Source: an uncultured delta proteobacterium (lineage in GTDB: Bacteria > Desulfobacterota > Syntrophobacteria > BM002). Taken from it: a DNA stretch of 27,691 nt. The position numbers and the translations under genes are program-made. Location: assembly GCA_963712115.1 (NCBI GenBank), contig CAVQGX010000013.1, positions 1-27,691 on the forward strand. The letters run 5' to 3'. This document shows positions 14,223 through 27,549 of the stretch, piece by piece (position 1 is the stretch's first letter; every line of letters starts with the position of its first letter). A model generated the notes under the pieces. The model searched no databases and was not told the DNA's origin. It saw nothing but the letters and a program-made list of their open reading frames with translations.

Positions 14223-14568
14223 AAATGACAAAAAAGCGTTTAAATATATCATTTCAATGATTTGACTGCCACGCTTTAAATCTCGGCAGTTTTGTCAAAT
14301 CGCCAAATTTGGCGAAATGCCAAAAGCCAAGTTGGTCTTTTGGCCAATTGCAGGCAGAGTGGATAGCTTGAAAAGAAAAACCCTTATCGATGACTGGCCT
14401 CCTCAACTTCAGTGCTCGGCCGATGGGGCTAAAATGGATCAGTTGAGCGAGCGACAACCTCAATTCAACTGCTTCATAAACGCAAACCTAATGCCAATGA
14501 AATAGAGGATTCCGGTGTGGATGGTTCTGTGAATAGTAAACTCACCTCGATGCTGCGAAAGTAGATAT

Positions 14569-14621
14569 TACATCCCTTAATTTAAACTTTTGCTCCTAGT
14601 GAACCAAATACAGAATGTGGT
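14569..14621. repeat. Module-boundary repeat R3
   Basis: TACATCCCTTAATTTAAACTT. Left flank AAACTCACCTCGAT resembles the R6 flank AAACGCACTTCGAT; right half diverged. Confidence 0.75.
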
Positions 14622-15347: not shown

Positions 15348-15504
15348 CGTCTGGTCTCGGCTCCTCAGCGCTAAAAAGTGCTCTCAATCATCAAAGGTTT
15401 TGTGTATATCTCGAAAGGTCAAAAAAGGAAAGCAAATTCTGATAGAAGGCGTTAGGGAAAGTCGAGTTATGTGAAATCTACCCAAACCCCATGATACTTT
15501 AAAT

Positions 15505-15587
15505 CACATCCTTTAATTCACATTCTGCTGAAATTTAATTTACCACAAGATATTGAGAGTCATAGAAAAGCGGAGCCGAAGCTCCGC
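15505..15587. repeat. Module-boundary repeat R4 with terminator hairpin
   Basis: CACATCCTTTAATTCACATT...CCACAAGATATTGAGAG...AAAAGCGGAGCCGAAGCTCCGC. Confidence 0.9.
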
Positions 15588-15635
15588 ATGGTCTCTGAAA
15601 AATAGTTAAAGCCTATTTCTAGACTTCCTATCTCC

Positions 15636-15961: not shown

Positions 15962-16154
15962 AAGAAATTATTTTTAAACTTTTGCTGTGTTGACGGTTAG
16001 TTATCTCAGAATTAGCCATGCAGAGCTCGTGAGAAAGTGGTATTTTGAGTAATAGTATTGGAAAAAAGATTCCATCTTCTCTGTGTCAAAAGAAAAACTC
16101 ACTATTTTTGGAGATTAAATGGCTGGCTCAAACGAGAAGGGGCAAAGTTTGTAT

Positions 16155-16236
16155 TACATCCCTTAATTCACACTCTCCTAGAATTTAATCTGGCACAAGA
16201 TATTGAGAGTACAAAAAAGCAGAGCCGAAGCTACGC
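16155..16236. repeat. Module-boundary repeat R5 with terminator hairpin
   Basis: TACATCCCTTAATTCACACT...TGGCACAAGATATTGAGAG...AAAAAAGCAGAGCCGAAGCTACGC. Left flank CAAAGTTTGTAT is identical to that of R7. Confidence 0.9.
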
Positions 16237-16306
16237 CGGTGGAGTTTAAAAAGTAACTTTAAAAGGTGAATGCTGTTTTGCACTCGTTAATGGGCGGACT
16301 AAAACC

Positions 16307-16516: not shown

Positions 16517-16566
16517 CTTCTAATCATCCCAAAATGAAGCAAAGCCGAAGGCCCGCAAACTGAGCA

Positions 16567-17696: not shown

Positions 17697-17791
17697 TATT
17701 ACCCCTTAATCTTATTCCACTGGTGAGGTTGTCCCTGTCAATCCGAAAAACCACCATTTTAGCCAACAAAAAAGCGGAGCCGAAGTTCCGC
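17697..17791. repeat. Degenerate module-boundary repeat plus GCGGAGC terminator hairpin
   Basis: TATTACCCCTTAATCTTATTCCACTGG followed about 75 bp later by AAAAAAGCGGAGCCGAAGTTCCGC, then AGTGTTCTT. Confidence 0.55.
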
Positions 17792-17892
17792 AGTGTTCTT
17801 GCAAGAATCATAACCTCAGAGAGTCATGTTTAACCTCCTGCCTGCAAAATGAAAAATCTGGAGCAGGCATTATCCTCACCGCTTGGGCAGCA

Positions 17893-18186: not shown

Positions 18187-18360
18187 TTTTATTCTCCTTT
18201 CATACTTATTAATCGAATGGAGGGCGAAAAAGGTTACAGGTGCATCAAGAAATTTACTCAGCTGAGGCAGCACGGAGGGGTGAAACATCCGGGCTAGAAT
18301 TGATTGGTCTAGGTTGAAAATTGCTAAGAGACTCTAATTCGAATGGAGAGTTGGCAAAAG

Positions 18361-18383
18361 AAAAAGCGGAGCCAAAGCTCCGC
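18361..18383 (-). terminator. GCGGAGC-family terminator hairpin
   Basis: Plus strand AAAAAGCGGAGCCAAAGCTCCGC followed by GTGTTCTT, as at 13.1 and 17.8 kb. Confidence 0.7.
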
Positions 18384-18600
18384 AAGTGTTCTTTAGGAAG
18401 TGAATAGCCTCACCGTGGGCAGGCGTGTCCAATTACCCCACACTTATTCAACACTAGATGTGGTGGTGACTTCTAAATAGCAAAAGTGTGGATTAAAGTA
18501 TGTAATGTTCACTCACCACTGAATAATCATTCGAGCTGTCTTCCCGATCCGACTGCAGCGAGTGGTAGGCGACCGCTGCATTTGTCTACTGGATTCCTCG

Positions 18601-19601: not shown

Positions 19602-20062
19602 AATTAGCTCTCCTTTTTGAATCTTTTGAAACGCCAACAAGTTATCATATGTTTACCATTATCTGAAATGATAGAATCCCCCATTTGGGGGATAAATGTT
19701 CTTTTTCTCTGTTATTGGGTGGCAAGGCGCCAAGATCAGTTGATGGCTCTTATCTATATGAGGATAAACGAAAGGACTCCAAAATAGTGGGTGTCGGAGT
19801 TGTGATCTAAGAGTTCACATATCTGGTACGTTTCTGAGGTATAGATTTTGGGGAGGCGAGGGAGCCTTTGGCGAGCTCGCCGAGGCTCCTCAACTCTATA
19901 ACTCGGGGCGTAACTGCATATGTTGTTCTCAGCCAGATTCTCAGTTAAGCATCTCGAAAAAAAAGTGAAGCTCCCTTGGTTAGTAGCCATCCGGTTTAGC
20001 CGGTGACATGATTTAGGGGCAGTCTGCAATGAAGCAGCTGCACAACTCAAAGGAGCTTCACC

Positions 20063-21511
20063 ATGAAAAAGCGAACCATTTATACGAATCAAAGTCAAGG
20101 GCTTCTTCGTCTCTTTGAGCAAGCAGCAAACAGTGCCAAAGTGATGTGCGTACCCATCGATTATGCGAAGAAGGACCATGTGGTCATGTTCTGTAACGGC
20201 TATGGTGATATTGTCAGAAAGCCGTTTTCGGTGAAGAACTCTCCGGAGGGTCTCGAGTATCTTGTCGATCAGGTAACCCGCTCTTGCCGTCACCGCCGAA
20301 TAAGAAAAGAGCATGTCTTCTTTGGCGGTGAAGATGCCAATTCATATGCAGAGAATTTTGCCAACACTCTGCGCTCTAAGGGATGGCTGGTGGCCCATGT
20401 AAATGCCCACGATGCAAAAAAGCAACGACAGAATCTTCAAGCCAGCACAGATCGTCTGGACTTGATGGGCATTGCCACCATGCTGCTCAACCGGCGAGCA
20501 AATTGCTCTCCTGCCCAAACTGGGATTTATCGTAACCTTCGGACTCTTGTGCGGCACAGAAAAAAGCTAGTTGTCATGAAAACTGAAGTTCGTAACCGAG
20601 TCCACGCTGTGGTCGATCGGCTTTTTCCAGGGTTTCTGAACGAGAAAAAAAGCGGGATCACCCCTTTTTCAAACAGTTCACTGTACTTGATGGAAAATAG
20701 CTTCAGTGCCCAGCAAATCCGCAGGCGCAAGCGCTCTACGCTTTGCAACATACTCAAACGTTACGGAACAGCTGATCCAGAAGCTACAGCCGCCAAAGTG
20801 CAAACCTATGCTGCTCAGGTGCTTACCATCCAGAACCAATACGCAGCTACCTTACAGATCTCCCTAGCCCATCACATCAAACTCTACCGCTGCTTGTTAG
20901 AGAATACTGAGCAACTTGAGAAAGAAATCGCCTTGCCGCTTGCTCAAAGCCAGGGTGCATTTCTAACCAGCATTAAAGGCATCGGCATTGTTTTGGCGGC
21001 CGGGATTACGGCTGAAATCGGCAGTCCCTTTGAACAAAAGCCGCTGAACAATCTGACTTCATACTCCGGTATTATCCCCAGGGTTAAACAATCTGGGGGA
21101 CCCAATGGAGCAGCCCATACGGGTCGAGTCAGCAAAAGGAGCAACCATCTTCTCAAAGACTCTGTGGTCCAGTCGGCTTTCCACATCGGCCGCTTTGGCC
21201 CAAAGGAGCTGGTAGTAGATTACAAGCGTCGTAAGGGAGCCGGACAGCACGCCGACTTCGGCATGGGCCGTCGATTCTTGCGCATGGCCATGTCTCTGAT
21301 GCGAACCTCACAAATCTATCTGCCACCTCATCTTCGAAATGATCAAGTCAGAGCACAAGAGCGGGCTGGCTACTACCTGGCTGTGTGGCCTCAGTTGCGC
21401 GAAAAATGGAATAAAGCCGATGCACTCAAAGTAGCCTTTGCAAAGCACAACCCCTTAGGTCAATGGCGACATATTGTACAGGAGATCTATGGGATAAAAC
21501 TCAAGCTATAA
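20063..21511 (+). CDS. IS110-family (DEDD) transposase / bridge recombinase, 482 aa
   Basis: PIDYAK (D), GGEDAN (E), STDRLD (D,D); C-terminal SIKGIG...AEIG...YSGIIPRVKQSG with the conserved Ser. AAGGAG RBS. Confidence 0.92.
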   Translation: MKKRTIYTNQSQGLLRLFEQAANSAKVMCVPIDYAKKDHVVMFCNGYGDIVRKPFSVKNSPEGLEYLVDQVTRSCRHRRIRKEHVFFGGEDANSYAENFANTLRSKGWLVAHVNAHDAKKQRQNLQASTDRLDLMGIATMLLNRRANCSPAQTGIYRNLRTLVRHRKKLVVMKTEVRNRVHAVVDRLFPGFLNEKKSGITPFSNSSLYLMENSFSAQQIRRRKRSTLCNILKRYGTADPEATAAKVQTYAAQVLTIQNQYAATLQISLAHHIKLYRCLLENTEQLEKEIALPLAQSQGAFLTSIKGIGIVLAAGITAEIGSPFEQKPLNNLTSYSGIIPRVKQSGGPNGAAHTGRVSKRSNHLLKDSVVQSAFHIGRFGPKELVVDYKRRKGAGQHADFGMGRRFLRMAMSLMRTSQIYLPPHLRNDQVRAQERAGYYLAVWPQLREKWNKADALKVAFAKHNPLGQWRHIVQEIYGIKLKL

Positions 21512-21554
21512 CCCCAGCCTGAAAACGCAGATGGCAGCAACAGCGAGAGAACTT

Positions 21555-21800
21555 TGTAGTTTCGGCGGACAGGATGGCTTTCAACATAACTGCCGCGGTG
21601 CTCGACAATGCGAGCGAGATCATCGACGGCTATGGCAAGAATGCCTCACCCTGTCCGTCCGAACCCTTATGGCTCCAAGGTACTCTGATCCTGGACAGAA
21701 CAGAAGATCTTGTCATACCAGTTTGCCAAAGTCGGACACCATGGGCGGGGGGTAACCACCGGCTACGCCGAACTGCAGATATCCATGACTGTGAGCTTTC
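21555..21800 (+). ncRNA. Candidate bridge/seek RNA in the 3' non-coding end (boundaries approximate)
   Basis: Stem TTCGGCGGACAGG/CCTGTCCGTCCGAA encloses GATGGCT (left target) and TGGCAAGA (reverse complement of right target). GGTACTCT and AGATA further on match the donor junction. Confidence 0.7.
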
Positions 21801-21900
21801 ACCTCGGTTTCACAAAAGCTCAAAAAAACCGGGCTAAACCGGCACAGGGGAAGTGTTGTCTCGAAAGAAGGGCAAAAAAAGAGTTGATCTTTTTCTGGTA

Positions 21901-22064
21901 CTCTTGCCAATATATGAACTTGGCCAGGATTGAAGGTATGAAAGGGAGATGTGACTTTACGTGGTGATGAGATACGGAAACGCACTTCGATCACTATCGA
22001 AGCTAATATTACATCCCTCTATCTAAACTCCACTGGAATTTCTTTTGGCGCTAGATCTTGAAAG
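21901..22064. repeat. Extended module-boundary repeat R6 (core 22010-22064)
   Basis: Collinear with 26893-27055 over about 165 bp; core TACATCCCTCTATCTAAACT...TTGGCGCTAGATCTTGAAAG. Confidence 0.85.
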
Positions 22065-22129
22065 TTACCAAGAGACCGCTGCGCTGAGAAAGCGCAGGCC
22101 GTGCTTAACCGAAAGGTGAGTTGCACAAT

Positions 22130-26695: not shown

Positions 26696-26892
26696 TGATT
26701 CTTTTCTCCTTTTCCCGAACACACTACTTGAGTTTAGACCTTAACTTAGTGCGAGATAGACATTAACTCTAGATGGCTAAAGACCTACGCAGCCTGTGGA
26801 TTGTTGTAGATAACCTCAGGCAACATGGTATCGGTTGGGAAGATAGTATCATCCAGTATGGTTGTTGATCAACCGTAGGGGAAAGTTCATGT

Positions 26893-27055
26893 CTCTTGCC
26901 AACATGTGAACTTGACCAGAACTAAAGATATGAGAAGGAGATGTGACTTGTCATGGTGATGAGATAAGTAAAGGTATTTCGGTCATTATCAAAGTTTGTA
27001 TTACATCCCTTAATTTACACTCAGCTTGAATTTAATTTGGCACAATATGTTGGAG
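26893..27055. repeat. Extended module-boundary repeat R7 (core 27002-27055), the copy nearest ssrA
   Basis: TACATCCCTTAATTTACACT...GAATTTAATTTGGCACAATATGTTGGAG. Confidence 0.88.
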
Positions 27056-27193: not shown

Positions 27194-27549
27194 TGGTGGA
27201 GGCGGCGGGAGTCGAACCCGCGTCCGGAAACCTTCCACTTAAGCTTCTACATGCTTATCCCGGGTTTTGTAATCTCACCTTCAGGGACTCCCCTCGGGAG
27301 GGATTCCCTTCAAGCCAGCCTACTTTGTTTGACCCGCTACCCATAGGCACCTGCAACGGGCGGTTCCGCTAGTCGACGCCCTTTACCAGCCCCGCGGACC
27401 AAGACTGGCAGGACGGTAGCCGTCTTAAGCGGCTACGGCGTACGCGTAGTTGTCTGCGTTTGCTTTATACCCCACCTGTTTTACGAGCAGGTAGGAACCT
27501 CGGCATGCCACTTAAGCTTCATGATCCCCGTCGAACCCGTTTCGCCCCC
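27194..27549 (-). ncRNA. ssrA: tmRNA, 356 nt
   Basis: 5' end GGGGGCGAAACGGGTTCGAC, 3' end GGGTTCGACTCCCGCCGCCTCCACCA, tag frame 27457-27425 encoding ADNYAYAVAA-stop. Confidence 0.97.

Follow-up and report, generated by a model that had tools for sequence, protein, structure and literature searches.

The window analyzed here, the whole 27,691-nucleotide (nt) stretch of contig CAVQGX010000013.1 (assembly GCA_963712115.1) from an uncultured delta proteobacterium (GTDB lineage Bacteria; Desulfobacterota; Syntrophobacteria; BM002), carries on its forward strand a gene for a 482-amino-acid recombinase with a 238-nt 5' leader and a 393-nt 3' noncoding end. We consider it very probable that these parts make up a 2,080-bp insertion sequence of the IS110 family at positions 19825 to 21904, the recombinase of which is directed to its site by a structured, roughly 227-nt RNA from 21553 to 21779. 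The ends, the CT core, the catalytic residues, the covarying RNA helices, and all four guide-DNA matches across homologs were established by computation. A preliminary description of the same DNA had proposed an IS110-family element with a guide RNA in its 3' noncoding end, target loop first and donor loop second; the family assignment was borne out by Pfam matches and the placement of the RNA by comparison of homologs. The features at the locus are as follows.

19813-19822, plus strand: left target (LT) GTTCACATAT, the left arm of the palindromic target repeat
19823-19824, plus strand: core CT of the left junction (CT before GGTACG in 10 of 10 left junctions)
19825-21904, plus strand: insertion sequence, 2,080 bp including the right-hand core CT
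19825-19830, plus strand: right donor (RD) GGTACG, left end of the element; CT-GGTA complements the right donor guide
19827-19832, plus strand: TACGTT, -10-like hexamer of a predicted circle-junction promoter
19833-19907, plus strand: long hairpin of the 5' leader (fold z = -2.8; compensatory pairs by alifold on 64 homologs)
19965-19974, plus strand: GTGAAGCTCC (GUGAAGCUCC), which pairs with GGAGCTTCAC (GGAGCUUCAC) at 20052-20061 as a 10-bp helix in the minimum-free-energy fold
20063-21511, plus strand: recombinase gene, 482 amino acids, DEDD/Ser type (D33, E90, D130, D133, S344-G345)
21553-21779, plus strand: predicted guide RNA of the bridge/seek type, about 227 nt, with the covarying closing helix 21553-21566/21767-21779 as its boundary
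21572-21579, plus strand: invariant GGATGGCT module of the target loop, containing GATGGCT (exact in 115 of 118 homologs)
21580-21591, plus strand: left target guide (LTG) TTCAACATAACT, which runs in the same sense as LT and the core
21592-21630, plus strand: inner stem-loop of the target loop (21592-21598/21623-21630 plus apical hairpin; 99.3% of alignment cells paired, four pairs changed on both sides)
21631-21640, plus strand: right target guide (RTG) TATGGCAAGA, ending in TGGCAAGA, the reverse complement of T-CT-TGCCA
21649-21657, plus strand: CCCTGTCCG, which pairs with 21566-21573 (the stem of the preliminary description) or with 21743-21751
21657-21662, plus strand: GTCCGA, which pairs with TCGGAC at 21732-21737 in the helix enclosing the donor loop (95.9% of cells paired, three pairs changed on both sides)
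21669-21674, plus strand: second ATGGCT module, heading the donor loop; its UGGC (21670-21673) pairs with GCCA at 21725-21728
21675-21686, plus strand: left donor guide (LDG) CCAAGGTACTCT, ending in GGTACTCT; GGTACT-CT equals the element's right end
21710-21721, plus strand: right donor guide (RDG) TTGTCATACCAG, ending in TACCAG (21716-21721); TACC-AG complements the left-end CT-GGTA
21884-21889, plus strand: TTGATC, -35-like hexamer of the predicted junction promoter, 17 nt from TACGTT in the circle
21897-21904, plus strand: right end of the element, made up of left donor GGTACT and core CT
21905-21919, plus strand: right target TGCCA plus the right palindrome arm (TGCCAATATATGAAC)
26884-26902, plus strand: unoccupied paralogous site AGTTCATGTCTCTTGCCAA, part of a 172-nt repeat 76% identical to 21901-22072

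The ends of the element follow from its copies. The genome contains a second copy (C3:95498-97585, minus strand), which shows 100% identity over 19817 to 21904 only and is preceded by unrelated DNA, and nine loci that are 90 to 91% identical at the DNA level gave alignments that start at 19811 to 19822 and stop at 21910 to 21921. Among these 90 to 100% identical copies, all 10 left junctions have CT followed by GGTACGTTTC, which starts with GGTACG, and the CT is preceded by ACATAT in eight junctions, by GATCT in one, and by ACGTCT in one. All 11 right junctions end in CTGGTACT-CT, with TGCCA next in 10 and the C3 copy as the exception. The number of independent loci is smaller than the number of junctions because the set holds duplicate records (among the 91% relatives, L014 is L004 and L012 is L006 under different ids) and two pairs of near-identical left flanks. 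In a profile of 72 homologs, identity was 0.06 to 0.26 over 19733 to 19812 and 0.63 to 0.73 from 19813 to the start codon, with a dip to 0.31 to 0.47 in 19913 to 19952; on the right it was 0.75 over 21889 to 21908 and 0.31 beyond. Environmental runs were examined as Logan contigs, and the estuary contigs of both DNA runs (2/2) start matching at 19817 after unrelated sequence, while 19700 to 19776 was covered by the contigs of none of the four runs. Given the second copy, the relatives, the profile, and the contigs, the element is 19825 to 21904, with CT at 19823-19824 and 21903-21904, and 19752 to 19816 is therefore host flank. The preliminary description had begun the element at 19747 or 19752, ended it at 21905, and derived a circle junction, GGTACTCTTATCT; 19752 to 19816 is absent from the identical second copy and from the relatives, and the proposed junction is wrong.

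The target of the element is the left shoulder of a palindromic intergenic repeat of about 27 nt, the left arm of which (19813-19822) is complementary at 9 of 10 positions to the right arm, ATATATGAAC, at 21910-21919. Unoccupied sites, in which the palindrome reads GTTCACAT-(CT/CG)-CT-TGCCAAG-ATGTGAAC, lie on C2, C4, C12, C29, C36, and C58 of the genome and at 26884-26902 of the window. The pattern CTTGCCAnnnTnTnAAC occurs nine times in the 4.9-Mb assembly; one of these appears to be fortuitous and the element occupies two. In all, the genome has about eight members of the target-bearing palindrome, two of them occupied, and ACATnnCT-TGCCA was found unoccupied 13 times, where chance would give about 2.3. 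It had been proposed that the element sits in a repeat with a CT core, which it does, and that it inserted at a shared CTCTT, which it did not; the site at 26884-26902, which had been presented as matching the reconstituted target, differs from it at 2 of 19 positions. The suggestion that the target is an abundant site also failed, given that the abundant repeat here, of about 60 nt (ATTACATCCCTTAAT...GGCACAAGATATTG, dozens of matches over about 25 contigs), is a separate module about 100 nt to the right of the target and is usually found without the palindrome. We also rejected the earlier "left target," AGTTGATGGCTCTT (19738-19751, plus strand), which lies 73 nt upstream of the junction in flanking repeat DNA; 19752 to 19816 occurs in no other copy or homolog. 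Semi-global alignment of the 60 nt left of each candidate junction with the paralog gave scores of 3.0 and 6.0, both at chance level (shuffles, 3.4 to 3.5; standard deviation, 1.6 to 1.7).

Residues 32 to 189 of the recombinase match the Pfam family DEDD_Tnp_IS110 (PF01548; E = 1e-21; 77.8 bits, cut-off 29), and residues 300 to 379 match Transposase_20 (PF02371; E = 1.9e-10; 41.4 bits, cut-off 21.3). Relatives with solved structures are only distant (ISCro4, E = 4.1e-5; IS621, E = 8.6e-5); the alignment to both takes in the DEDD and S-G regions, and the catalytic positions were assigned via the alignment to IS621. Of 119 distinct intact homologs, 118 are 482 amino acids long, and D33, E90, D130, and G345 are present in all 119 and D133 in 118. 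The S-G motif has its presumed nucleophile at residue 344 (window 21092-21094), where 56 homologs have Ser and 63 have Thr; T-G is given for IS1111-type rather than IS110-type enzymes in the account of Siddiquee et al. (PMC11187229). The best annotated matches in a plasmid collection were ISBth166 and other Firmicutes IS110-family transposases, at 25 to 28% identity over residues 28 to 421, and compared with these the first 27 and last 60 or so residues are specific to the 482-amino-acid clade.

The guides were resolved by comparison of homologs. The 3' noncoding ends of 72, and then 97, distinct homologs (60 to 93% protein identity) were aligned, and the alignment shows a conserved scaffold with four short segments that are variable or matched to the donor. 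Both loops are built alike, from AUGGCU, a 12-nt 5' guide, G, a stem-loop, U, a 3' guide, and (A/U)UGCC, the guides being the 12 nt after each ATGGCT and the 9 to 12 or so nt after each inner stem. From 167 loci, 137 had a full-length gene and 118 were parsed for all four motifs; the 19 of 137 that were not parsed were mostly on short contigs. Each element's own donor guides were used only to locate its ends, and the target guides were then compared with the flanks. On average, the left target guide matched 4.35 of the 7 nt 5' of the core in its own flank, compared to 2.32 in noncognate flanks (78 distinct events), and the right target guide matched 4.81 of 6, compared to 2.04 (73 distinct events; 10 of the 118 rows, in which the anchor had misplaced the guide, were dropped from the right-side statistics). 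When one representative per guide was permuted (63 left, 24 right), the observed sum was reached in 0 of 10,000 shuffles on either side, which is the guide-target covariation that the preliminary description had proposed to look for in homologous elements. L147 is typical, with left guide CGCGACAACT beside flank TGCGACAACT and the complement of its right guide, ATCTTT, beside flank ATCTTG; the guides of L021, L096, L134, L030, L044, and L113 match their flanks in the same way. Contigs of environmental relatives align with the RNA of the window only from just past the position of the right target guide (break at 21638 or 21647) and have CGTTGGAGA or CATTGC there instead.

The donor guides also track the element's own ends. 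Across homologs, the left donor guide and right end are GGTACTCT/GGTACTCT in 57 and GGTGCTCT/GGTGCTCT in 22 to 24, and the variant right donor guide TACTAG goes with a left end CTAGTA in 4 of 4 cases. [quoted passage not shown] In the element of the window, the right target guide is paired with T-CT-TGCCA at 8 of 8 positions, the left donor guide equals GGTACT-CT at 8 of 8, and the right donor guide is complementary to CT-GGTA at 6 of 6. For a single sequence, about 0.7 exact 8-mer matches are expected by chance (45-nt target against 627 nt of noncoding ends, by arithmetic), and many 6- to 8-nt matches are present. Single-sequence matches are thus not above chance, and only the comparison of homologs separates real guides from chance strings. 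All of the strings named in the preliminary description are where it had placed them (CTCTT at 19747-19751 and 21901-21905, GATGGCT at 21573-21579, TGGCAAGA at 21633-21640, GGTACTCT at 21679-21686, and AGATA at 21777-21781), and two of its four guides survived: TGGCAAGA is the right target guide by flank matching, and GGTACTCT is the left donor guide. GATGGCT, taken for the left target guide, is part of the AUGGCU module, which occurs in both loops, and AGATA, taken for the right donor guide, is located within or beside the closing helix's 3' strand (21767-21779).

As in other members of the IS110 family, the recombinase has a DEDD/RuvC-like N-terminal domain and a PF02371 C-terminal domain with conserved D-E-D-D and S(T)-G residues, the core dinucleotide is the same at both junctions (CT, 10/10 left and 11/11 right), and the loop segments of the RNA, itself predicted, covary with target and donor DNA. 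We propose that the target loop would read the target DNA and the donor loop the joined ends of the element, with the left donor guide (21675-21686) reading GGTACT-CT and the right donor guide (21710-21721) reading CT-GGTA. Recombination at the CT core would then put the circularized element into the left shoulder of the palindrome GTTCACAT..CT-TGCCAAg-ATGTGAAC. By analogy with the literature on IS621, ISEc11, and ISEc21, we infer that the RNA would be made and bound by the protein, that the element would move through a circle, that a promoter would arise at the circle junction (TTGATC and TACGTT, 17 nt apart), and that translation would be limited by the 5' leader, which would cover the ribosome-binding site.

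The fold of the RNA was assessed with RNAalifold and by direct pair counts on the aligned homologs. In the pair-counted models, 94.5 to 95.0% of cells were paired, compared to 33 to 48% when partners were slid by 1 to 3 columns, and 14 to 26 pairs changed on both sides. All nine pairs of the closing helix (21553-21566/21767-21779) change on both sides, and the two inner stems and UGGC/GCCA at the base of the donor loop are also supported by the counts. None of the four guides falls within a covarying helix. Whether the two loops are modeled as tandem hairpins or as a nested fold, the target guides remain unpaired; the donor guides are unpaired in the pair-counted models, although in the RNAalifold consensus GGUA of the left donor guide and UACC of the right one are paired with each other. 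The preliminary description had drawn a long stem (21561-21573 with 21650-21663) around the target guides. This stem can form, with 13 pairs and one bulge; its upper part (CGGACAGG/CCUGUCCG) fits the alignment, and 92.5% of cells are paired over the whole helix. Pairing of its 3' strand with a second, downstream copy of the 5' strand (21743-21751) is equally possible, and its lower part competes with the helix enclosing the donor loop. The stem is only one of two mutually exclusive conserved pairings.

The alternative that fares best keeps the same element and the same guides and differs in the working fold, which would be nested rather than tandem, or would alternate between the two pairings; we regard this as a real possibility that falls somewhat short of an even chance. 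In the nested fold, GGAUGG (21572-21577) pairs with CCACC (21756-21760), CCCUGUCC (21649-21656) pairs with the GGGCxGGG copy (21743-21751), and the donor hairpin sits within the target junction. This model pairs 95.0% of cells with 26 pairs changed on both sides and has a covariation score of 0.259, compared to 0.191 for the tandem model, although the extra score comes largely from helices that are open to both models (the closing helix and 21657-21662/21732-21737). Pair 112/243 changes on both sides in 13 sequences, but GGAUGG/CCACC is invariant and, because it never varies, is without covariation support. Both duplexes are stable in 97/97 homologs, at -16.1 (tandem) and -14.8 (nested) kcal/mol on average, with the tandem duplex the more stable in 73 of the 97. 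The symmetry of the donor loop (UGGC/GCCA) favors local GGC/GCC closure, with 98.3% of cells paired, and so speaks for the tandem arrangement; the multi-loop guide sites given for IS1111 orthologues by Durrant et al. (PMC11208160) speak for the nested one. A switch between tandem and nested pairing is possible.

Far less credible is a reading in which the 3' region acts as DNA, for example as protein-binding ends, and the guide-flank matches arose by copying of flanks into the element with no reading by RNA. Transcript evidence here is limited to contigs, which favors such a reading, but the variable segments lie 170 to 320 nt inside the element, between invariant modules and in the loops of a fold with compensatory changes; one segment is target-sense and the other antisense, as described for IS621 (PMC11208160); and the asymmetry at the left donor position, G opposite A and never A opposite G, fits RNA-DNA wobble and not DNA copying. 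Least probable of all, to the point that we set it aside, is the element as first drawn (19752-21905, CTCTT core, GATGGCT and AGATA as guides, target AGTTGATGGCTCTTGCCAA), for which all strings are present, 19738-19751 shares 12 of 14 positions with the left half of the paralog (rare in a random 100-nt stretch, about 3e-4 by arithmetic), and the reconstituted site has the usual 27-nt length of the family, but against which 19752-19816 is unconserved and absent from the second copy and all nine relatives, 115 of 118 homologs carry GGATGGCT unchanged irrespective of their target, AGATA is in a covarying helix, and the true left arm pairs 9/10 with the right arm.

Several observations weigh against an RNA-guided IS110-family element as we have described it. 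The recombinase scores 130.7 bits against NCBIfam NF033542 ("IS110 family RNA-guided transposase"), below the curated equivalog cut-off of 140, and by that score is a divergent member. The left target guide of the element in the window pairs with ACATA and CT but is mismatched at the position just before the core, one sub-clade has its left-side match shifted by one base, and the right flank of the C3 copy, GGTGCG, misfits the right target guide. No bridge-RNA family was found in the window with Rfam at the gathering cut-off or at E <= 10, where the only matches were a tmRNA elsewhere and a chance snoRNA (E = 5.2). The circle-junction joint was not seen in the environmental Logan contigs. Finally, contigs from RNA libraries, 90 to 95% alike, cover the stretch only in parts; they include 21620 to 21663, at most a weak hint of expression.

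The element is apparently active, with two identical copies in the genome, and sporadic; apart from its own genome, a search of 60 related genomes found it in 3. In the right flank of the second copy (L002; C3:95420-95510), the GGTACT-CT that ends the element is followed by GGTGCGTTTCT and only then by TGCCAAGATGTTAAC. The 11 nt after its right end match the element's own left end (GGTACGTTTCT) at 10 of 11 positions and look like the footprint of an earlier imprecise excision or tandem insertion. Because of this resemblance, the right half-site of the C3 copy fits the donor guide and not the target guide. Homologs with 70 to 75% protein identity (L008, L026, L016, L018, L027, L029, and others) were found in bins labeled Promethearchaeota, Aenigmatarchaeota, Planctomycetota, Anaerolineales, and Bacteroidota, many on contigs of about 2 to 4 kb that are barely longer than the element; mis-binned copies of a repeated mobile element, or true transfer, may account for these. 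Copies L031 and L032 belong to Desulfosarcina alkanivorans, a cultured carrier.

The 5' leader is as conserved as the 3' end in the 72-homolog profile. The CUCC/GGAG part of the helix 19965-19974/20052-20061 is paired in 98 to 100% of 64 homologs, and this helix covers the ribosome-binding site of the recombinase gene. One RNA-library contig (90 to 95% alike) skips 72 nt of the leader within 19884 to 19957, which fits the conservation dip at 19913-19952; part of the leader seems dispensable in relatives. A promoter scan found no sigma-70-like promoter on the plus strand within the linear element. At the -10 offset, most of 64 distinct left ends have a TACnnT-type hexamer (TACCTT, 23; TACGTT, 16; TACATT, 7), and at the -35 offset most of 67 distinct right ends have hexamers of the TTGACT, TTGATT, or TTGACA type (TTGACT, 23; TTGATT, 18; TTGCAA, 7; TTGACA, 4). 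The predicted junction promoter matches the known junction promoters of the family (PMC11187229; PMC12288879). Near the right end, the minus strand has a terminator-like hairpin with a T-run (21828-21843) that could stop transcription entering from the right flank.

Compared with characterized systems, the element shares with IS621 (IS110 group; PMC11208160; PDB 8wt6) a DEDD plus S-G recombinase and a single RNA with the target loop before the donor loop, in which the 5' side corresponds to the bottom strand over 8 to 9 nt and the 3' side to the top strand over 4 to 7 nt. Also as in IS621 (PMC11208160), the core CT lies within every guide, the target is a palindromic extragenic repeat, and long subterminal inverted repeats are lacking. 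The best end inverted repeat is 4 to 6 nt in 53 of 57 elements (shuffled mean, 4.9), and the only recurrent one is the terminal GTAC(C); end repeats are thus at shuffle level, in keeping with the IS110 group, which has only 2 to 3 bp. Unlike in IS621, where the RNA is 5' of the gene, the guides here (21580-21721) lie 3' of the stop codon (21509-21511), which departs from the upstream position of the IS110 group; the recombinase has 482 amino acids, compared to 328 in the distantly related PDB chain; and the RNA of about 227 nt is closed by a terminal helix and has a duplicated GGACAGG strand that offers two pairings. The guide that pairs with the bottom strand is 5' of the guide that pairs with the top strand, which is the order of the IS110 group (PMC11208160, PMC11187229).

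With the IS1111 group and its seekRNA (ISEc11, ISKpn4, and ISPa11; Siddiquee et al. 2024, PMC11187229), the element shares a guide RNA in a long downstream noncoding right end and the G(L/I)-P----S/T-G motif, in which 63 of 119 homologs have T. Unlike the IS1111 group as described there, it has no 7- to 17-bp subterminal inverted repeats, its recombinase is longer (482 against 330 to 350 amino acids), and its guide order is reversed, with the bottom-strand match 5', as in ISEc21, rather than the top-strand match. ISPpu9 and ISPpu10 of Pseudomonas putida (PMC12288879) are likewise of the IS110-group type, lie in palindromic extragenic repeats, and have a long, structured, translation-limiting 5' leader, and they form more than one kind of junction (PMC12288879; 10.64898/2026.03.19.712850), as the C3 footprint hints for the element here. 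Their bridge RNA, in contrast, is upstream of the gene (PMC12288879), and ISPpu9 has a strong promoter of its own (PMC12288879), whereas none was found on the plus strand within this element.

The element is therefore a mosaic of IS110- and IS1111-group traits, within the known RNA-guided IS110 kind, the concept of which dates from 2024. Some IS110-type elements have a downstream noncoding region, and further families may exist, according to Siddiquee et al. (PMC11187229); stated recombinase sizes, 315 to 455 amino acids and about 300 to 460 in Durrant et al. (PMC11208160), both fall short of 482. The clade is common in sediment Desulfobacterota; 95 stretches were confirmed in contigs of genomes and 368 in those of metagenomes. 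It is doubtful, though worth stating, that the 482-amino-acid clade is an undescribed third bridge-recombinase lineage, marked by a 3' RNA, an IS110-type guide order, an RNA closed end to end, and a target-loop switch via the duplicated strand; were it so, the fold switch could gate when target and donor are engaged. The supplementary trees of PMC11187229 and PMC11208160 may already place the clade, and a literature search that combined IS110 or bridge RNA with Desulfobacter-type names returned no paper with IS110 terms, which does not show the clade to be unpublished.

Other features of the window concern its repeats. Copies of the 60-nt repeat, at 14558-14588, 15493-15555, 16143-16205, 21998-22060, and 26990-27052, separate small, unrelated minus-strand genes (DUF3795, TrmO_N, PilZ, VanZ, and an SMR pump), a layout that resembles a cassette array. 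We considered an integron attC identity for the repeat and rejected it, as a by-eye comparison with the R'/R'' consensus gave no fit. Five copies of an A-rich run with the hairpin GCGGAGC-CGAA-GCTCCGC (15555-15588, 16204-16237, 16524-16557, 17759-17792, and 18351-18384) may serve the genes on the minus strand as terminators or form another small repeat family. The gene array has at its right edge a tmRNA gene (27194-27549, minus strand; RF00023, 207 bits), a type of gene at which islands commonly integrate.

In summary, our analysis fixes the true ends of the element for annotation of this genome, in which 19752-19816 and the palindrome (19813-19824 and 21905-21919) are host repeat and not part of the element. 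Bridge- and seek-RNA recombinases are under development as programmable tools for DNA insertion without double-strand breaks, and the clade offers a natural experiment in which one conserved scaffold carries at least 24 right and about 62 to 63 left guides, each matched to its own insertion site. The mix of traits found here, namely a 3' RNA, an IS110-type guide order, no long end repeats, and a recombinase longer than the stated ranges, bears on how the IS110 and IS1111 groups diverged.

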